Shown piece after piece: positions 155 to 9,419 of a DNA stretch of 64,000 nucleotides. The stretch is from positions 6,867 to 70,866 of the forward strand of contig JADHVD010000003.1 of the NCBI GenBank assembly GCA_016784165.1. Direction: 5' to 3'. The stretch comes from Candidatus Woesearchaeota archaeon (GTDB lineage: Archaea; Nanobdellota; Nanobdellia; Woesearchaeales; BS150m-G63). A program made the translations under genes and the position numbers. Each line of letters starts with the position of its first letter. The stretch's first letter is position 1. The notes beneath the pieces were generated by a model, which was not told the DNA's origin, ran no database searches, and worked only from the letters and a program-made list of their open reading frames with translations.

Positions 155-237
155 TATAGTAAATTACTACTAATTAAAGTTTTATAACATTTTTAATAGT
201 ATTTTACTATTAATACTATATAAACCTTTCTAAAAAC

Positions 238-3200
238 TTAAGGATTACCATAACTCTGAGCCAAAGTTCCTTTCAGTTTAAGATTCCCGCTATTATCAAA
301 GAAAGCTATTAAAGAATCAGAAGCATTAACAAACTTCAAAGCAGTTCCAGAAACACTCATAACAGCATTCTCAGTTAACTCCCCAACCAAATACAAATTC
401 CCAGTATTTGAAACATAAGCAATATTTGTTCCAGCATTATCTTGTAAAATAAAAGAATTAGCCCCAGGATTCAAACTACCTTGATTATCTGACAACACTC
501 CGCGGATAAACATATTTCCAGTATCATCAATACTTCCAACAATATTATCAGAACTATTAGTGATAGCAAACTTATTACTTGTAGGGATCAACAAACTCAT
601 TGTAACATATAAAATACTATTACTAGTAATATTAACTCCCTGCGAATCAACATCATACCCGCTCTTAGTGGTATTCATAGTATAATTAGTAAGATAATTC
701 TTAACACCAACAACCCAATCACAACTAGAACAATTTTCATAATATTCACTAATGTTTTGTTTTACTATCCATCCATCTCCACCACTTAAAACAGAAAATC
801 CCAAATCACCATTAACATTCCAAGCACTCACGTTAGCCCCACCAACATCCCCATTGCTATCATTCACATAGACATCTAGGTACCAGTTTACATAAAGCAC
901 ACCACTACCAGAATAATAAAACAAAGTAGCACTTTCATTAAAAGAAACATTTACAAAAGTGTTTGCACCAGCTGAAGTCCCCTCAATCCAAACATCAGCA
1001 TAATCACCCCAAAATAAAGAATTATCATCAAAAGTAGAATCTATAAATCTATTTCCAGATGAATTTAAGAAATAAACCCCTGCGTCTTGATTATCAGTAA
1101 CCAAAACATCATAAAAACTGTTGTTGTAAGAATCATCAAAGCTTACTCCTGAATAATTGTTATACTTTATCTCAACATCTGTAACATTATTGTTATTAGA
1201 TCCATCACTAAATTCAATCCCATCTAAATAAGAATTGTGTATTGTAAGATTATAAAGAGTGTTATTCTCACAAGCACTTGCTAATATAACTCCTGCTCCA
1301 AGTTGAGTCAAATTAAACAATTGATTATCAATCCTATTCCCTATAGATGAAGAATGAAGATATACAAAATTATCAGTAGGATTTCTTATAATATTTTCAG
1401 TTATATTATTATTACTAGAAGCATCTAACATTATACCATAATTATTACAGTTATCACAACCACCAGTTCCAATAAGCTCATTAGAACTTATTACACTATC
1501 ATCACAATTATCTAACTGAATCGCAGCAAAAATATCTCCACTCTGAGTGTCATTAATATAATTATCCTCAACAATATGTCCAGATCCCTCAACATAGATT
1601 CCACTTCCAGAAATATCATAGATGATATTATTAGTCACATTATTTCCAATTCCTCCAGATACAGAAATACCAACACTCCCAACTTCCCCATCCCCAATAT
1701 CTCTCACAGTGTTAGAATCTATGAGAATATTGTCAGCAGTATCAGAACCAATTCCTGCAACAGTGTAATTACTATCAACTAAATGAATTGAATTATTGAA
1801 AACATAACCATCATCAGAACCATCATCATAATATATTCCATAAGTAAAGTCAGTAATCTCACAGTTCTTAACAGTGACATTAGTAACATTATCTATATTT
1901 ATTGCAGTAAAAGTATCAACATAATTTGTATTATATTCTCCATCTATATGGTATCCTGCACAATCAAACACAACATCAGAAGCATTGATATTAAAACAAA
2001 GTTCAGTATCATTGTAATAATTTATACTTGCATTCATCTCATGAGTTCCACTCACAGTAATATTACTACAACTATCATAAGTATGGCTTGGATCATAAGC
2101 AAAATCAGTTACAGTCATCTCTTGATTACTGAATTCAAAAATTAAAGTAGCATAACCAGCAATATTCATATGGTTTACAAATCTTCCAATCTCACTACAG
2201 CTGTAATCCTCAATCAAAAACCCAACAGGTTTTATTGAATCATCACTACCAATTGAGCTATAATCATAAACATACCCATCACCACTAATAATTTTCAACA
2301 CATCAAGTAAAGAATCATCCCCACATTTTAGATCTACAAACCTCATCTCATCAACACTTCCACCATTATCAATCATAATCTCTTCCCAATAAGAGTTGTT
2401 ACTACTAATACTCAAATTAGCAGTTCCAGTGGTGTTAAACATCACAGTCCAAGTATCTCCATCACGTAGATATTCGATAGGATTCAACACATTAATTTCA
2501 ATCTCATAAGTTTGGTTAGATAGATGAGGCACTATCCATTCAACATAATCTACCAATCCATCATCAGTAGTATCATAACCATCAAAGTTTACGCTCTCAC
2601 GTTTTCCATCAACAATCCAATACAGATTAACACTCTCAACAGCACTTTCAGGAATAAAAGTATAAGCCAAAATATCTTCATAATGTATTTCAGAGCTCAC
2701 AACTATCCTCTTTAGCCCATTACCTAATTCTTCTTCAACAGCAGTGGGGCCGGGTAATTCATATTCTATTTCAATCTCATCAACAACTTCTTCAACAATA
2801 AGCTCTGTTTCATTCCCAATATCCTCTGCAACAACATAACCAGTAAATCTAAATAAGGATTTTAGCCAATTAAATAACTCAAACAACAACCCATCACCAA
2901 CTTCAGTAACCGCTCCACCAGTTATCAAATTGTGCTCACTCAATTCTTCAACTTCTTCACCCTTTTTAACAACAACTTTGTCAGAGATATCTTTCTCAAT
3001 CCTTCCAGTTATTTTCTTAACCTCAATATTGCTCGCATTTTTAGGCAATTCAACAATAAGATTTTTCTTAGGCGCAGTAAGTTTAACTTTTTTAATAAAT
3101 TTAACAGGACGATTAATCATAACTCTACCAATCATTTTTTCTTCTACACTAACATTAACAGTCACATTTTCAGTAATATTAACAATAACATTCTCAGTAA

Positions 3201-3834
3201 TATTAACAATAACATTCTCAGTAATATTAACACTAACATTAACAGTCACATTCTCAAGACTTATGTTTTCTATAGTTACTCCTTCTATGACTTCCTCAAC
3301 CACAGAAGCATTTTCTTCAACAACACCCACATTCTCAATAACTTTCAGAGTTTCATTAATACTGATATTTTCAGTAATATTAGTACTCACATTAATAGTC
3401 ACATTCTCCACACTTACAGCCATACTCACATTTTCAGTAATATTTTCAATACTCAAATTATCTAAACTAATATTGATTTCACCCACATTAATAGAAACAT
3501 CTTCAATAGAAACATTCTCCAAACTTATATTTTCAACACTTTCACTTTCAGTAATAGTAGTTACTACTTCTTCAGCCAAAGAGACATTTTCTTCAACATC
3601 AATTACACTAACAGAAACATTATCAATAATCTCTCCAACACTAGCATTGCCCAAACTTAAATTATCTAAACTAACATTTTCTAAAATTAGATTATCTAAA
3701 CTATTATTTCCAGCAACTAATCCAGTTATCAAAGGTTGAGTGAATGTAAGAACTAATGCTAATAGGATAATAATTCCTGCCCCCATTAATTCACCATACC
3801 CTTTCTTGTTCCAAACTCTTTTTTCCAAACTCAT
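238..3834 (-). CDS. Giant (1198 aa) membrane-anchored or secreted surface protein with right-handed parallel beta-helix repeats
   Basis: There is an N-terminal hydrophobic anchor (GAGIIILLALVLTFTQPLITGLVAG). A long array of ENVS/NIS/NIT short repeats follows. Beta-helix-like repeats are present (NCEITDFTYGIYY, ILIDSNTVRDIG, NNIIYDISGSGIYVEG). C-terminal repeats include GNMFIRGVL, GNLYLVGEL and GNLKLKGTL. N-x-S/T sequon density is very high. Confidence 0.85.
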   Translation of the reverse strand: MSLEKRVWNKKGYGELMGAGIIILLALVLTFTQPLITGLVAGNNSLDNLILENVSLDNLSLGNASVGEIIDNVSVSVIDVEENVSLAEEVVTTITESESVENISLENVSIEDVSINVGEINISLDNLSIENITENVSMAVSVENVTINVSTNITENISINETLKVIENVGVVEENASVVEEVIEGVTIENISLENVTVNVSVNITENVIVNITENVIVNITENVTVNVSVEEKMIGRVMINRPVKFIKKVKLTAPKKNLIVELPKNASNIEVKKITGRIEKDISDKVVVKKGEEVEELSEHNLITGGAVTEVGDGLLFELFNWLKSLFRFTGYVVAEDIGNETELIVEEVVDEIEIEYELPGPTAVEEELGNGLKRIVVSSEIHYEDILAYTFIPESAVESVNLYWIVDGKRESVNFDGYDTTDDGLVDYVEWIVPHLSNQTYEIEINVLNPIEYLRDGDTWTVMFNTTGTANLSISSNNSYWEEIMIDNGGSVDEMRFVDLKCGDDSLLDVLKIISGDGYVYDYSSIGSDDSIKPVGFLIEDYSCSEIGRFVNHMNIAGYATLIFEFSNQEMTVTDFAYDPSHTYDSCSNITVSGTHEMNASINYYNDTELCFNINASDVVFDCAGYHIDGEYNTNYVDTFTAINIDNVTNVTVKNCEITDFTYGIYYDDGSDDGYVFNNSIHLVDSNYTVAGIGSDTADNILIDSNTVRDIGDGEVGSVGISVSGGIGNNVTNNIIYDISGSGIYVEGSGHIVEDNYINDTQSGDIFAAIQLDNCDDSVISSNELIGTGGCDNCNNYGIMLDASSNNNITENIIRNPTDNFVYLHSSSIGNRIDNQLFNLTQLGAGVILASACENNTLYNLTIHNSYLDGIEFSDGSNNNNVTDVEIKYNNYSGVSFDDSYNNSFYDVLVTDNQDAGVYFLNSSGNRFIDSTFDDNSLFWGDYADVWIEGTSAGANTFVNVSFNESATLFYYSGSGVLYVNWYLDVYVNDSNGDVGGANVSAWNVNGDLGFSVLSGGDGWIVKQNISEYYENCSSCDWVVGVKNYLTNYTMNTTKSGYDVDSQGVNITSNSILYVTMSLLIPTSNKFAITNSSDNIVGSIDDTGNMFIRGVLSDNQGSLNPGANSFILQDNAGTNIAYVSNTGNLYLVGELTENAVMSVSGTALKFVNASDSLIAFFDNSGNLKLKGTLAQSYGNP

Positions 3835-6800
3835 TTCTTAACATTCCTCAAAGTTTCATAAAGTAAAACAGCAATCATTTCTTTATCTTTTTCATTCCTC
3901 AAAGTTTCAGCAAGCTCGCTTTCCCTAAAGACATAATGAATCCATTCAGCAATATCATTTTTACTCCAGTTCACATACCCAGTGAATTCTTCTTTACACA
4001 TATTCATTAGTTCAAACACCATTGCTTCAATATTTCTAATTTCTCTGCCGTCTTTCAGTACAAAACCACTACCTTCTGGAGCATCTTTCAGCAGTAAACT
4101 CAACTCTCTTTCAATTTTCTTTTTTTCTGGAATAGCAACAACAACTCTTGATAACCCATGGGATAGCAGCATACTTACAACAATAATCATTAAAACAACA
4201 AAATAGCTGAACAGCGCAACACCTTTTTTCTCTCCACCAATTTGATTGAACATATACGCTTTACCTGTTAAATCTTCCTTCTTAGATTCATCCGAAGATG
4301 ATTCTTCTCCATCACCTTCTACATTAATTTTTTCTTCCTCACTCACTTCTTCTTCTTCTATAATTTCAACCAAACCAACAGCAGGAACTTTCTGCACCAT
4401 TTCTAAAATTACAACATCTTCCACGATACTTTCTAATTTTAAATTAAATTCATTAACCCTATCCCTATTCACATCAAATCCAACACTTTCACCTAATCTA
4501 ATTGTTGCAGTTTTATCATCCACCAAAACATTAACAGAATTTTCATTAACACCATTTAATTCAATTTCAATAACCTCAGCCGAAAAAGCATCAACCATAT
4601 CTTTAATAGCATCCAAAATCAAAACCCCTTCTCTTACATACAGCACACCATCTTCCATCACCCATTTATTTAATTCTATTAATCTCATAACCATTAAGTT
4701 CAATTCAATAGTATCTCCAACCTCAAGAGATTGCTCAACACGACCAATAGTATCACCCGATCCTCCATTAAGTAATCTATCCAGCGCTTCTTCCATTACA
4801 ATTTTAAACAATTCTCCCATATCAACTCCACTATACTCAAAACCAAGATAACCCATTTCGATTTCATAAATTACAGGTTCTCTGATACTAATCCCCTCAT
4901 CAGTTGTTGTTGTTGGGGTACTCTCAGTTTCTTCTTCGGTTTCAGCAACATAATCACCAACACTATAATTAGTAAACCCAGTAACACTAAAGAAATAATC
5001 ATCCTCAACATTACTAATATTTCCACAGAATCCGCCACAATCAGCACTATTCCTATAAGGTACAGCACTTCCACTAATCGAAACATTATAAAAGCTCAAA
5101 TTAGCAGATTTATTAAGCCCACTGAACATACTTGAATTTACAAAGATGTTGTTTTCTGTAATATCCAACCCACTTCCAAAGTAGAGAGTTCCATTTTCAG
5201 TAATATCTAAATCTGGACTTCCCCACATAATCTCCCCATAACTATTGTTGTATATCAAAAAATTATCATCACTAGGAAAATCATCTATAATTTTGTTATC
5301 TGAAGCAGTCAGATTATTATTAATAAATAAATTATTTTCTGATTCCCCTTGGATGTGAAGTGTAACCCTATTGGCTGTTGCAATATTATCTTTTACATTA
5401 TTATTTGTAGCAGATGCTAAATGAATTGCATACTTATTTGCTGTAAAAGTATTATTTATAACCGTGTTATTGTGTGAATCAGAATATAAAGAGAGAGCAT
5501 ATTCTCCAGATTCTGCCGTGTTATTTATAATAGTGTTATTTAATCCAGAATATATATGGATACCCAAAAGAAATTTAACATAAACAGCATTATTTTCAAT
5601 CAACCCATTAGATGAATTATAATAATAAACCCCATTAGCACTTCCAACCCCGCTTAAATTAATATCACAGTTCTTCACAGTAACATTATCTTGACCATTA
5701 ACATAAACCCCATAACTACCATTTCCTTGTATCGTTCTGCCACCACAATCAAACACAACATCATCCTCAGTTATATTTAGGATATAATTATTTTCACAGC
5801 CAATAATATCATAACTCAGATTTGTTGATTCATTTATTGTTTGACCACATCCCCCTTCTAAAGTAAATTCAAGTCCAGTATTATCTGTCAAATTAACACT
5901 GCTCACCCCAGTGATATAATTCTGTTTTGATGCATTTATCGTATAATTGGTCCAATAGCTCTTTCCAGCTGAGTTTTGGACATATTCAGTAATATTCTGT
6001 CTTGCTGTCCACCCAGAGCTGTTAGTCAGCACACTAAACACCTGACTGCCGTTAGTCTGCCACCCAGTTATATTCACCCCACTAAGATCACTCCCTTCGC
6101 TATTATTCACATAAACATCTAAGTACCATTGTATATGAAGATTTCCCCCCCCAAGTCCAAAGCTAACATCACTTTGGTTAAAACTCATATTCCTAAAATA
6201 AACATTATTAGTACTATATTCTGAACTTATAGAAATATCATCACCATTTGGAGCAATTATTTCAGAATCAATAAAATAATTCACATCGTTTCCTGTACTA
6301 TATACACTAATACCTGTATGATTTGTTGAGTTAATATACTCATTTCTAAAAGTATTATTCCCACTATTACTCATTTGAATCCCAAAACCCCCACTTGTTG
6401 TTATTGTGTTGTTCAGGAGAGTGTTTGAATCAGAATTAACTAGAAGTATCCCGTGCCCAGCTGTTTCACTTGTGTTTATTATATTGTTTGTTACATTTGA
6501 ATCAGAAGATGAAGAAAAGTATATTCCACGCCCATATGCTCCACTAATAGTTATATTATTATTTTCTATTGTTCCATCATCAGCACCCACAAAGTAAATC
6601 CCATGTTTACTATTAGTTGTTACATTCCCTTCTAAAATATTACAGTTTTTAATAGTTACATTATCATAACCGCCAGAATTATTTATTCCATAACCTAACA
6701 CTCCTGCAGTAGAATAATTAATAGTATACCCTGCACAGTCTAATATTATATCATCTGCTCCAATAGTTATTACAGTTCCATCACAAGTTAAATCTTCTTC

Positions 6801-7979
6801 TAATGTTGTTGATTCTGTTATTTCTTGATTACATGGATTTTGACCAACACTATAAGTGGTAAACCCAGTAACACTAAAGAAATAATCATCCCCAACATTA
6901 CTAATATTTCCACAGAATCCGCCACAATCAGCACTATTCCTATAAGGTACAGCACTTCCACTAATCGAAACATTATAAAAGCTCAAATTAGCAGATTTAT
7001 TTAACCCAGAATTACTAACAGAATCAACTTCAATTAAATTAGCACTAATCTGAACATCAGCACTTAGGTTTGTTCCGGTTCCATTGATTGGTTCTGTAAA
7101 TCTTATTTCTCCTTCATCTGTGTCTTTGAAATAAATTATTCCTCCACTTCCAGCAATAGAATAATTAGTAATAACTTGATCAATTAGATAAGTACCATTA
7201 ATACCTGCATCAACTATGTTTAAATCATAATCTGCTATATTACTGAATGTGTTATTAGTAAAACTATTATTTTCTGGATAATTTGACCCCGATGAATCTA
7301 ATCTTACCCCATCTCTACCTGATTGAGCAATATTATTATTTTGGAATAAGTTGTTATCTGAATCCTTATATATCCATACTGCATCTGCATCTATTTGTGT
7401 TGTATTTATTATGTTTTCTGAAATGTTTGAGTTTGAGCTTGAAGTAAGCTGGATCCCAAATCCATAAATTCCAGAAGTTGTGATTGTGTTTTCTGAAATA
7501 TTTGAACTTGATGAAGTTAAATATATCCCAGAACCTTTGACTCCATTGTTCGTGATTGTATTATTTTGTATTGTTCCATCATCAGCACCCTCAAAGTAAA
7601 TCCCATGTTTATAATTAGTTGTTGAATTCCCTTCTACAATATTACAATTCTTAATAGTTACATTATCATAACCACCAGAATTATTTATTCCATAACCTAA
7701 CACTCCTGCAGTGGAATAGTTGATTGTATATCCTGCACAGTCTAATACAACATTTGAAGCATTAATGATAATTCCAGTACCATTACAACTCATATCTCCA
7801 CTAAGTATAGAATCCTCATTAACATAACTACCACAATCAGAGCTGTCATTAAACACAACATAACCAGTGATATTATCTCCAAATCCGATTGAATAAAACA
7901 CACCAATAATTGAAACAGCAAGCAGAGTAAACACTAATAATTTCAAGTTCTCTTTCCAGCTCATCTGTTCATCTATCAT
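3831..7979 (-). CDS. Giant (1382 aa) surface protein with duplicated parallel beta-helix modules, a Thr-rich linker, a C-terminal TM helix and a roughly 105-aa cytoplasmic tail
   Basis: The N-terminal anchor is LKLLVFTLLAVSIIGVFYSIGF. The block CAGYTINYSTAGVLGYGINNSGGYDNVTIKNCNI occurs twice, as does LNKSANLSFYNVSISGSAVPYRNSADCGGFCGNISNV. The linker is ETEEETESTPTTTTDEG and the TM helix is ALFSYFVVLMIIVVSMLLSHGL. The ORF overlaps the downstream ORF by 4 nt. Confidence 0.85.
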   Translation of the reverse strand: MIDEQMSWKENLKLLVFTLLAVSIIGVFYSIGFGDNITGYVVFNDSSDCGSYVNEDSILSGDMSCNGTGIIINASNVVLDCAGYTINYSTAGVLGYGINNSGGYDNVTIKNCNIVEGNSTTNYKHGIYFEGADDGTIQNNTITNNGVKGSGIYLTSSSSNISENTITTSGIYGFGIQLTSSSNSNISENIINTTQIDADAVWIYKDSDNNLFQNNNIAQSGRDGVRLDSSGSNYPENNSFTNNTFSNIADYDLNIVDAGINGTYLIDQVITNYSIAGSGGIIYFKDTDEGEIRFTEPINGTGTNLSADVQISANLIEVDSVSNSGLNKSANLSFYNVSISGSAVPYRNSADCGGFCGNISNVGDDYFFSVTGFTTYSVGQNPCNQEITESTTLEEDLTCDGTVITIGADDIILDCAGYTINYSTAGVLGYGINNSGGYDNVTIKNCNILEGNVTTNSKHGIYFVGADDGTIENNNITISGAYGRGIYFSSSSDSNVTNNIINTSETAGHGILLVNSDSNTLLNNTITTSGGFGIQMSNSGNNTFRNEYINSTNHTGISVYSTGNDVNYFIDSEIIAPNGDDISISSEYSTNNVYFRNMSFNQSDVSFGLGGGNLHIQWYLDVYVNNSEGSDLSGVNITGWQTNGSQVFSVLTNSSGWTARQNITEYVQNSAGKSYWTNYTINASKQNYITGVSSVNLTDNTGLEFTLEGGCGQTINESTNLSYDIIGCENNYILNITEDDVVFDCGGRTIQGNGSYGVYVNGQDNVTVKNCDINLSGVGSANGVYYYNSSNGLIENNAVYVKFLLGIHIYSGLNNTIINNTAESGEYALSLYSDSHNNTVINNTFTANKYAIHLASATNNNVKDNIATANRVTLHIQGESENNLFINNNLTASDNKIIDDFPSDDNFLIYNNSYGEIMWGSPDLDITENGTLYFGSGLDITENNIFVNSSMFSGLNKSANLSFYNVSISGSAVPYRNSADCGGFCGNISNVEDDYFFSVTGFTNYSVGDYVAETEEETESTPTTTTDEGISIREPVIYEIEMGYLGFEYSGVDMGELFKIVMEEALDRLLNGGSGDTIGRVEQSLEVGDTIELNLMVMRLIELNKWVMEDGVLYVREGVLILDAIKDMVDAFSAEVIEIELNGVNENSVNVLVDDKTATIRLGESVGFDVNRDRVNEFNLKLESIVEDVVILEMVQKVPAVGLVEIIEEEEVSEEEKINVEGDGEESSSDESKKEDLTGKAYMFNQIGGEKKGVALFSYFVVLMIIVVSMLLSHGLSRVVVAIPEKKKIERELSLLLKDAPEGSGFVLKDGREIRNIEAMVFELMNMCKEEFTGYVNWSKNDIAEWIHYVFRESELAETLRNEKDKEMIAVLLYETLRNVKK

Positions 7980-8407
7980 CTCTTTTTACCACCTTTTTTA
8001 TCTACACCACGTTTCTTCTTAGCCCTATTATAACAAGTCCAAACAGTCCTATCATTCCTACCCAAAAGCACAGCCATTTCGTGATAACTAAATCCCTTTT
8101 CATCTTTTAGATACTCAGTAATCGCTTCTAACACACTAACTTCTCTATCCAAAAATACAGAACTCGGCACACACTCTCCGCCTTCAGCAGCTAAAACATG
8201 CTTTGGCCGTTTTTTCTTAGCCCTATTATAACAAGTCCAGATTGTTCTATCATCCCTGTTTAACAGCACAGCTATCTCATGATAACTCATTCCTTTCTCG
8301 TCCATAAAATATTCAGAAACAGCTTCTAAGACGCTAATACTTCTATCTAAAAATACCGATAAAGGTATAAGAACTACACTCTCCACTTTAATTTTAGCTA
8401 AAACCAA
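7976..8407 (-). CDS. Small DNA-binding protein made of two tandem HTH modules (sigma-70 region 4 / LuxR-like). It is the first gene of the surface-protein operon.
   Basis: An internal duplication is visible: SVFLDRSISVLEAVSEYFMDEKGMSYHEIAVLLNRDDRTIWTCYNRAKKKR versus SVFLDREVSVLEAITEYLKDEKGFSYHEMAVLLGRNDRTVWTCYNRAKKKR. The track start is a TTG codon and a GTG at 8384-8386 is an alternative, so the start is uncertain. Confidence 0.7.
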   Translation of the reverse strand: MVLAKIKVESVVLIPLSVFLDRSISVLEAVSEYFMDEKGMSYHEIAVLLNRDDRTIWTCYNRAKKKRPKHVLAAEGGECVPSSVFLDREVSVLEAITEYLKDEKGFSYHEMAVLLGRNDRTVWTCYNRAKKKRGVDKKGGKKR

Positions 8408-8425
8408 TACTTACAATGTAAGTAT
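8403..8425. promoter_or_regulatory. Candidate operator, copy 1 of a 23-bp repeat. It contains the perfect palindrome ATACTTACA-A-TGTAAGTAT (8407-8425).
   Basis: The site lies between a TATA-like TATTTAAAT (about 8431-8439) and the start of the HTH gene, and it overlaps the called start codon. Confidence 0.45.
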
Positions 8426-8473
8426 TATATTATTTAAATGTTTTGGTCAGAACTCACGAAAATACACAAAAAG

Positions 8474-8496
8474 ACCAATACTCACAATGTAGGTAT
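8474..8496. promoter_or_regulatory. Candidate operator, copy 2 of the 23-bp repeat (ACCAATACTCACAATGTAGGTAT), a degenerate palindrome
   Basis: It is 21/23 identical to copy 1 and lies 71 bp away, in the divergent intergenic region between the HTH gene and the DUF368 gene. Confidence 0.4.
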
Positions 8497-8573
8497 AACT
8501 AATTTATAAGGTTTTCGGTAAAAAACAATAAAAACAACAAACTTTTTAATAAACAACAACTCTCAACTAAATT

Positions 8574-9419
8574 ATGAAAAACCTAAAAGAGTATTTCTTA
8601 ACTTTTCTCAGAGGAATTTTCATGGGTACAGCTGATGCCATACCAGGAGTTTCAGGTGGTACAATAGCCTTAATCACAGGAATCTACGAAAGATTAATTT
8701 ACGCAATTAATAATATAAACACCCTAATCATAAAAGAATTATTCCAATTAAACATAAAAAAAGCATTCAAAAACACAAAAAAGCTCGACTTCAAATTATT
8801 TATTCCGCTTGCATTGGGAATCATAATAGCATTATTTACTTTCGCCCACATTATCAGTTATCTCTTAAAAAACCAAACAGCAATAACATATGCATTTTTC
8901 TTTGGCCTAATCCTTTCTTCAGCTTTCTTCGTGTACAAACATACACATAACAATCACCTAAAAAACATACCATCATTACTAATAGGAATTCTTTTAGCAA
9001 TTCTTATCACTGGATTAACAAAAACAGCAACAGCTCACACAAACATCATAATTTTTCTTTCAGGCGTAATTGCAATCTGTGCAATGATTTTGCCAGGAAT
9101 ATCAGGAGCATTCATACTTGTACTTTTAAATCAGTATGAATTCATCTTAAACCTAATAAAAACACTCCAGATAAACAAACTCTTGATTTTTGCATTGGGG
9201 GCAATAATTGGTATCCTCTCTTTTTCAAAATTAATCTCTTACCTCTTGAAAAAACACAAAAAACAAACAATGGCATTATTAACAGGGCTCATGCTCGGCT
9301 CATTAAGAATTCCTTTTTACAAGATAACTACAACATACACTAACATCTGGACAACAATAATCTCGGCAATAATAGGATTCACAATAGTATTCATTTTAGA
9401 AAAAAAATTCACTTCTTAA
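8574..9419 (+). CDS. DUF368-family polytopic membrane protein (candidate polyprenyl-phosphate recycling transporter)
   Basis: The N-terminal motif GTADAIPGVSGGTIALITGIYERL and a second PGISGAFILVLL repeat are typical of DUF368. The protein has multiple TM helices. Confidence 0.75.
   Translation: MKNLKEYFLTFLRGIFMGTADAIPGVSGGTIALITGIYERLIYAINNINTLIIKELFQLNIKKAFKNTKKLDFKLFIPLALGIIIALFTFAHIISYLLKNQTAITYAFFFGLILSSAFFVYKHTHNNHLKNIPSLLIGILLAILITGLTKTATAHTNIIIFLSGVIAICAMILPGISGAFILVLLNQYEFILNLIKTLQINKLLIFALGAIIGILSFSKLISYLLKKHKKQTMALLTGLMLGSLRIPFYKITTTYTNIWTTIISAIIGFTIVFILEKKFTS

Follow-up and report, generated by a model that had tools for sequence, protein, structure and literature searches.

How are the giant surface proteins of small, uncultured archaea controlled? 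Abundant and uncultured, the Woesearchaeota and their DPANN relatives presumably live in attachment to other cells, and their giant surface proteins are the foremost candidates for the means of attachment; we know of nothing that is established about the control of these proteins. The question is raised directly by one locus of a Candidatus Woesearchaeota archaeon, on a 64,000-nucleotide (nt) stretch of contig JADHVD010000003.1 (the window), where a gene for a 143-amino-acid (aa) protein with two helix-turn-helix (HTH) modules is followed by two genes for giant proteins rich in N-x-S/T sequons (Table 1). Our evidence was computed, and comprises the protein fold, gene linkage and fusions in relatives, and the enrichment, position and co-variation of a promoter motif. 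The best explanation of the locus, and in our judgement a probable one, is that the 143-aa protein is a single-chain pseudo-dimer that binds palindromes in its own core promoters and negatively autoregulates the three-gene operon. The 143-aa protein and a 17-base-pair (bp) palindrome with a predicted half-site code would then form a testable regulator-operator pair, and a first handle on the control of giant surface proteins in Woesearchaeota-type cells.

The tandem-HTH protein, its giant partners and their linkage

The two modules of the 143-aa protein are 76% identical over 54 aa. Both match the Pfam model Sigma70_r4_2 (PF08281), in two stretches (E 3.7e-11; 42.9 bits against a gathering cut-off of 25.7), and NCBIfam returned weak matches to the region 4 ends of sigma factors. 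An AlphaFold2 model based on a 32-homologue alignment (predicted local distance difference test score 86.7, predicted template modelling score 0.79) contains two strand-plus-four-helix modules. In Foldseek searches a single module superposed on region 4 of SigR (5fgm) with a root-mean-square deviation of 1.5 Å over 49 residues, 31% identity and a template modelling score of 0.67, and region 4 of SigD (3vep) was another single-module match. The whole model had no whole-chain match in the PDB and none at E ≤ 1e-3, only the single-module sigma-4 alignments being meaningful, and a profile search of PDB sequences gave only marginal matches to sigma-H and SigR (E 0.085-0.6). Pfam and NCBIfam matches cover region 4 positions only and the two modules account for the whole 143 aa, leaving no sigma region 2; because this region is absent, the protein is not a sigma factor. 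Weak PHROGs matches to phage sigma factors and late activators represent the same generic HTH signal and do not point to a viral origin.

Neither Pfam nor NCBIfam has a dedicated model for this family. A profile search (E ≤ 1e-10) found 1967 family clusters at 50% identity. At 90% identity there are 398 clusters, and among 120 listed the proteins are 120-235 aa long (most 125-185) with both modules covered; the tandem architecture belongs to the family at large and not to the window gene alone. Both modules carry the recognition helix DRTIWTxYNRAKKK with hardly any variation. The closest relatives sit in metagenome-assembled genomes (MAGs) labelled Woesearchaeota or Nanoarchaeota. The family is also carried by third-party MAG records titled 'uncultured Methanosarcinales archaeon' (L001, L003, L006, L009, L011, L012, L017 and others; related loci are cited here by L numbers), and their gene content and best matches to named Woesearchaeota or Nanoarchaeota MAGs suggest that these titles are wrong. 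Some members carry the tandem unit twice or more in one chain and so have at least four HTH modules (P0121-P0128, 260-370 aa; L086:9301-10134); such chains are free or C-terminal on a 2377-aa beta-helix protein, and may match tandem operator arrays.

The first giant protein (giant 1, 1382 aa) has an N-terminal anchor at residues 12-28, three NosD/beta-helix regions with 63 sequons, an acidic sequon-free region at ~residues 1010-1255 and a second transmembrane helix at residues 1256-1272 (nt 4164-4214), which an earlier preliminary description of this DNA did not include, followed by a 110-aa cytoplasmic tail (nt 3834-4163). The second (giant 2, 1198 aa) has an N-terminal anchor at residues 16-32, a low-complexity N-V-S/N-I-S stalk and a beta-helix region paralogous to that of giant 1 (35% identity over 274 aa), and no C-terminal transmembrane helix. 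Beta_helix and NosD models (PF13229, PF05048) matched both proteins above the gathering score (107.5 and 111.3 bits in giant 1, 63.8 and 37 bits in giant 2; E 1e-17 to 1e-32), and the TIGR03804 repeat occurs 7 times in giant 1. The equivalog for the NosD copper-enzyme maturation protein (TIGR04247) scored 66 bits (cut-off 300), and the locus lacks a nos gene context; the fold alone is shared. Sequon density is 4.6% in giant 1 and 5.1% in giant 2, about 10-fold that of other genes (the remaining 56 genes of the window have a median of 0.49%), and lies 8.0 and 9.6 standard deviations, respectively, above composition-matched shuffles. With N-terminal hydrophobic anchors and sequon enrichment, the giants have the features of archaeal N-glycosylated surface proteins. 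Glycosylation, surface exposure and a surface or host-contact function are predicted.

The preliminary description had reported three minus-strand open reading frames (ORFs) with 4-nt overlaps, had read the first as two copies of one HTH module and had ascribed N-terminal anchors, beta-helix repeats and extreme sequon density to both giants. The coordinates proved exact, and both junctions (7976-7979 and 3831-3834) are ATGA stop/start overlaps. Pfam, AlphaFold2 and Foldseek confirmed an HTH fold, of a sigma region 4-like kind, and Pfam, hydrophobicity and the shuffle test agreed with the account of the giants.

We then analysed the gene linkage in relatives. A scan of species-representative genomes gave 282 relatives of the HTH protein, of which 80 loci were fetched; stop-to-stop frame analysis found 89 HTH occurrences, 84 of them with enough flanking DNA. 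A sequon-rich ORF of at least 400 aa directly follows the HTH gene in 44/84, compared with 7 of 420 control genes (1.7%) taken from the same loci at more than 3 kb from any HTH gene. In 32/84 this is a same-strand ORF of at least 1000 aa within 150 nt of the HTH gene (many exceed 3300 aa and are cut by the locus end), and in 12/84 an ORF of 400-999 aa; another 10 HTH genes are followed by a sequon-rich membrane protein of 150-399 aa. The HTH gene stands directly after a giant gene in 4/84, and in 6/84 the HTH is fused in frame to the giant protein. The fusions run from a sequon-rich ectodomain through a hydrophobic transmembrane helix and a KKRRKKRK-type stretch to a tandem HTH at the extreme C-terminus, and by the positive-inside rule this basic stretch places the HTH in the cytoplasm. 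The fusion in L086 (2377 aa), a second independent one, combines NosD/beta-helix domains like those of the window giants with four HTH modules. Among the best 150 representatives of the profile search, at least 14, L086 among them, exceed 1000 aa and carry the HTH at or near the C-terminus, the longest reaching 5919 aa.

The partner ectodomains share no common Pfam domain and are heterogeneous (Laminin_G_3, Ig-like, beta-helix, DUF676, or nothing), and many downstream giants consist of a ~90-aa cytoplasmic N-terminal domain, a transmembrane helix and a huge ectodomain. What is conserved is the HTH module together with a partner class, namely a large, membrane-anchored, sequon-rich protein, and on these comparisons the pairing, sometimes fused, recurs throughout the Woesearchaeota group. 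The preliminary description had proposed a check for such synteny, which holds in these counts and extends to in-frame fusions. It had also called the arrangement undescribed as far as known, and we found no description of the tandem protein, of its linkage to giant proteins or of the palindrome in the searchable full-text literature, common though the family is in sequence databases.

Two side observations concern these loci. One clade has a conserved membrane protein of ~418 aa beside its giant genes, with a signal peptide, an LG(I/V)GPSR motif, a C-terminal transmembrane helix and no Pfam match (L011:4079-5335, L011:11608-12870, L012:8694-9941, L017:8693-9943, L023:8808-10064, L054:7532-8803), in the repeated gene order giant, 418-aa gene, HTH, giant. 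At L086:2690-3010, a called 65-aa gene upstream of the 2377-aa fusion resembles the cytoplasmic N-terminal domain of that fusion, frameshifted in an A-run; a fault of sequencing or assembly, or else a slippery site, is the probable cause.

The promoter palindrome and its co-variation with the HTH helices

Upstream of the HTH genes we identified a 17-bp palindrome with the consensus TACTTACAWTGTAAGTA, an 8+1+8 inverted repeat. The 64-kb window contains two matches, with 0.19 expected, and both lie in the HTH promoter. Each stands 6 nt downstream of a TATA or TATA-like box, the modal spacing in the family, and each box follows a purine run resembling a B recognition element (BRE), so that a promoter-like unit is duplicated and both operators overlap the gene's own core promoter, as in autoregulated operons. 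The proximal palindrome is identical in L001, L002, L081, L083 and L084. Both units are kept in relatives with 75-81% identical HTH proteins while the intervening sequence drifts, and among close strains the control region is ~98% identical.

When the upstream DNA of all loci was searched, most had the palindrome ahead of the HTH gene, as a rule in an array of 2-8 copies. Perfect palindromes numbered 44 in 1.19 Mb and 0 in shuffles; allowing up to 2 mismatches there were 119, against ~1 in shuffles, and 100 of the 119 lay within 400 nt upstream of an HTH gene. A looser pattern occurred at 3.29 per kb upstream of HTH genes and 0.020 per kb elsewhere (~165-fold), and was present in 48/73 unfused loci. 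A TATA box is recognisable in 59 cases, and in 41 of them 3-7 nt separate its 3' end from the motif downstream, a spacing which implies that the motif spans ~-18 to -1. Variant palindromes are found at the own promoters of L060 and L086, the fused genes with available 5' ends.

Base changes in the palindrome track residues of the recognition helices. An Arg at the Y-x-R position of HTH1 goes with G at motif position 11 in 59/59 instances (23/23 genes); without this Arg, position 11 is G in 10/49, A in 30 and T in 9. With the HTH2 sequence DRT, position 4 is T in 81/95 and position 7 is C in 91/95, and with xRN, position 4 is A in 13/13 and position 7 is T in 9/13. Seven genes have a degenerate HTH1 helix (NRNEIALAVTYRNAKKK), and for 0/19 of their left half-sites is a right half-site in register, compared with 73/103 in other genes. 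The fused proteins have a non-Arg HTH1 and an xRN HTH2, and in line with the prediction position 4 of their operators is A and position 11 a base other than G. By this co-variation the TATA-proximal half-site is assigned to HTH2 and the start-proximal one to HTH1. The preliminary description had suggested a self-contained, regulated module; a conserved promoter palindrome that co-varies with the HTH recognition helices supports that suggestion.

From the position of the TATA box, transcription of the HTH gene probably starts at ~8407-8408, which would make the operon mRNA leaderless or near-leaderless. The ATGA overlaps and the absence of a second operator suggest that the three genes are co-transcribed. 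A short T-rich open frame with the same TTG context as the HTH gene follows the distal unit (8440-8478, minus strand; 14 codons in the window, 26 in L001 and 14 in L002); rather than a gene, this frame is probably what the duplication of the promoter left behind.

Mode of control and comparison with known systems

We propose that one 143-aa chain would bind one palindrome, with HTH2 on the half-site nearer the TATA box and HTH1 on that nearer the start; a distance of 9 bp between the centres of the half-sites would place the modules in successive major grooves. Since the operators lie between the TATA box and the predicted transcription start of both tandem promoters, the bound protein would block recruitment of RNA polymerase, resulting in negative autoregulation of the HTH gene and of the two translationally coupled giant genes. 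Through ATGA coupling, or fusion, the amount of regulator made would stay in proportion to that of giant protein, and tandem promoter-operator units could provide a strong but tightly capped promoter. In relatives, the same HTH/operator module would act ahead of very different giants or, fused behind a transmembrane helix, as a membrane-tethered autoregulator. The archaeal repressors MDR1, Phr and LrpA bind between the TATA box and the start and block polymerase recruitment as non-covalent dimers. The window operator resembles theirs in its position at ~-18 to -1, but the protein families differ, and a single chain would here take the place of a non-covalent dimer.

Several points weigh against this proposal. 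The co-variation counts are by instance, and as subfamilies share ancestry the independent events are far fewer. The motif, searched as a regular expression, is missing in 25/73 unfused loci, in most of which another gene heads the cluster that contains the HTH gene. A RIO-kinase-like operon is also preceded by motif arrays, in L016 (4325-4692, seven copies at 53-nt spacing) and L029 (4706), so the regulator does not serve giant-protein genes exclusively in every genome; in some genomes it may control more than the giant-protein operon. Physical binding of the palindrome by the HTH protein is likely and the transcript starts are predicted, both from sequence comparison. A palindrome requires two-fold geometry of the modules, which is presumed here. 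Finally, repression is suggested by operator position, by analogy with the archaeal repressors, and activation or dual control would also be possible.

The HTH protein and its giant could instead form a sigma/anti-sigma-like or contact-sensing pair, in which the giant would use its cytoplasmic part to sequester or tether the HTH protein until an external cue, such as host contact, freed it as an output regulator, possibly an activator. We consider this improbable, although its gene order and ATGA coupling resemble those of extracytoplasmic function (ECF) sigma/anti-sigma pairs, and the cytoplasmic N-terminal domain, transmembrane helix and huge ectodomain of many giants have an anti-sigma-like topology. 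It would also suit the conservation of the giant 1 tail between strains (91.5%, against 58% for the ectodomain) and the fusions, which tether the HTH to the membrane. Archaeal RNA polymerase, however, does not use sigma factors and the HTH protein lacks region 2, while Pfam detected no anti-sigma domain of the zf-HC2/RskA type in the window giants or 12 related partners. The cytoplasmic parts of the giants are moreover heterogeneous (some giants have such a domain at the N-terminus, giant 1 has a C-terminal tail and giant 2 neither), a large protein search detected no homologues of the giant 1 tail, and the operator position favours repression. Such pairing does not conflict with the operator, and might act on top of autoregulation instead of replacing it. 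More generally, the HTH and the giant, as two coupled proteins or one fused, might constitute an archaeal transmembrane signalling device, which we consider unlikely. The ectodomain would sense contact with a host or surface, or report its own completed export, and the tethered or sequestered cytoplasmic HTH would convert this signal into transcription control at its own operator. If true, the DPANN archaea would possess their own counterpart of ECF sigma/anti-sigma or ToxR-type signalling, and a route from cell contact to gene expression would have been proposed for episymbiont-like archaea for the first time.

Two further readings concern the DNA itself. That the HTH serves as a structural tether of the locus to the membrane at the site of giant insertion, or as a cis-acting product counter supplying one repressor per finished giant, is in our view a long shot. 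Fusions do put the HTH right behind a transmembrane helix at the extreme C-terminus, with operators in the fused gene's own promoter, and the split versions are stoichiometrically coupled by ATGA overlaps, but the window protein is soluble and unfused, and the arrays before a non-surface operon in L016 and L029 suggest ordinary regulon behaviour; tethering and ordinary repression are not separated by sequence data. The least likely reading, to which we give hardly any weight, is that the palindromes are nucleic-acid hairpins (stabilisers in 5' untranslated regions, attenuators or recombination sites) that the HTH protein does not bind. The consensus is a perfect, foldable 8+1+8 inverted repeat, and with arrays of 2-8 copies, transcripts from upstream promoters would include the downstream copies. 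Against this, non-compensatory changes are frequent (position 4 changes from T to A while 14 stays A; C7 is kept while 11 becomes A), base changes track recognition-helix residues, and the subfamily with a degenerate HTH1 has single half-sites (a partner in 0/19) from which no hairpin can form. Nor was there an Rfam match in the region; recombinase genes are absent nearby, and flanking housekeeping genes are syntenic between strains.

The proposed autoregulator combines features of several known systems. Its modules share the small helical HTH fold of sigma-70/ECF region 4, with detectable sequence similarity, but it lacks regions 2 and 3, carries two region 4 modules in tandem and belongs to an archaeal host, and its predicted site is a palindrome between TATA box and start and not a -35 element. 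As in ECF sigma/anti-sigma loci, a small gene for a sigma-4-type HTH protein is translationally coupled to one for a membrane protein whose extracytoplasmic domain is large, under a promoter that would be autoregulated; unlike them, the window locus has no region 2 or anti-sigma domain, its partner is a giant predicted glycoprotein and its transcription machinery is archaeal. MarA, SoxS and Rob, of the AraC family, use two HTH motifs of one polypeptide to bind two successive major grooves as monomers. They share the double HTH in one chain with the window protein, but are bacterial activators with an unrelated fold, an asymmetric site and two HTHs that do not repeat each other in sequence. The fused relatives (L055, L049, L060, L061, L075, L086) resemble ToxR, CadC and TcpP in joining a cytoplasmic DNA-binding domain, one transmembrane helix and an extracytoplasmic domain, with an operator at their own promoter; they differ in their reversed order (C-terminal HTH), in a sigma-4-like instead of an OmpR-type winged-helix domain and in an ectodomain of 1000-5900 aa. 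Only these fusions have a ToxR-like tethered layout, the window protein being a separate soluble ORF. By analogy, the window system could be likened to a monomeric double-HTH binder of the MarA type joined to a classical autoregulated operon, and the fused relatives as ToxR-type, although by fold and defining features they fall in none of those families.

The SPEARE proteins of Nanohaloarchaeota are very large, probably host-interacting surface proteins in small-genome archaea, and we know of no dedicated HTH regulator, co-encoded or fused, and of no operator for these or other DPANN giants. The natural fusions, with a transcription-factor domain on the cytoplasmic end of a giant, suggest membrane-tethered gene control in archaea, and the operator could be used as a search key for surface-protein regulons in metagenomes. 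Our results also offer an explanation for puzzling 'sigma-70' genes of Woesearchaeota. One such family (fam00359) was reported to be prevalent there, with no anti-sigma factors found and a mechanism that was unclear (Castelle et al. 2021, PMC8204110). It shares the taxon and the Pfam-type annotation of the tandem-HTH family and is possibly the same family; the passages of PMC8204110 on these genes differ in making no mention of a tandem architecture, of linkage or fusion to giant proteins, or of an operator.

Further features of the giants and their surroundings

Table 1. Features of the HTH operon and its flanks (positions in the window)
Feature	Position	Strand	Details
Tandem-HTH gene	7976..8407	(-)	143 aa, TTG start; ORF call
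HTH1	8207-8368	(-)	residues 14-67 of the 143-aa protein
HTH2	8009-8170	(-)	residues 80-133 of the 143-aa protein
Giant protein 1	3831..7979	(-)	1382 aa; ORF call
Giant protein 2	238..3834	(-)	1198 aa; ORF call
Distal TATA-like box	8502..8509	(-)	TTATAAAT, purine-rich BRE-like CGAAAAC before; read from sequence; kept in L001 and L002
Distal operator (predicted)	8479..8495	(-)	imperfect palindrome TACCTACATTGTGAGTA; member of family-wide motif
Proximal TATA box	8431..8438	(-)	TTTAAATA, CCAAAAC before; 6 nt upstream of proximal operator
Proximal operator (predicted)	8408..8424	(-)	perfect 17-bp palindrome TACTTACATTGTAAGTA; abuts TTG start codon of HTH gene
Oligo-T tract	232..237	(-)	GTTTTT right after giant 2 stop codon, then new TATA box TTTATATA; sequence only
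VCA0040-like/DUF368 gene, divergent	8574..9419	(+)	polyprenyl-phosphate translocase-like; Pfam PF04018, E 5.9e-79; shares 166-nt control region with HTH operon

Giant 1 is a strain-level hotspot. We compared the window with L081, whose HTH protein is 97% identical; the flanking genes are 92-97.5% identical and giant 2 is 90% identical, while giant 1 is only 58% identical and differs by large indels (1382 against 1540 aa; window 3831-7979, L081:5022-9644). Its transmembrane-plus-tail segment keeps 91.5% identity. Within the giant 1 gene, DNA repeats of 288 nt (82% identical; 6508-6795/7510-7797) and 166 nt (97% identical; 4956-5121/6843-7008) could drive the remodelling of this protein and the gain and loss of cassettes. 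A reading of the locus as a mobile or phase-variable cassette was rejected, as no recombinase gene lies nearby and the flanks are syntenic in relatives. Pfam gave only sub-threshold hints of DUF5752 and SAM_PNT in the giant 1 tail, and a local phmmer search detected the tail domain in a handful of small L046 and L053 proteins. These searches did not tie the tail to the HTH protein.

Archaeal transcription terminates at oligo-T tracts, and the tract following giant 2 is the likely end of the operon. The window has a G+C content of ~30%, and an Rfam scan of it found two tRNAs and no match in the operon or palindrome region. A scan for bacterial sigma-70 promoters and intrinsic terminators gave the same counts as shuffles, and is irrelevant to an archaeon.

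Many HTH-linked surface proteins have a short (I/L)(T/S)G(Y/F/L)(A/V)V motif right after the N-terminal hydrophobic segment, which may be a conserved processing or anchoring signal; it reads NITGYVV at residues 36-42 of giant 1 and LITGLVA at residues 35-41 of giant 2, and is also found in the partners of L029, L069, L074, L011 and L021. The divergent VCA0040-like/DUF368 neighbour is present in L001 and L081 as well, and in L002 a 299-aa gene on the opposite strand lies at the corresponding position. In another clade, a 765-aa PMT_2-type glycosyltransferase is encoded just upstream of the HTH gene (L013:1578-3875, L018:6584-8872, L022:6745-9042, L026:6615-8948). Lipid-carrier and glycosylation functions may therefore be co-located with the sequon-laden proteins.

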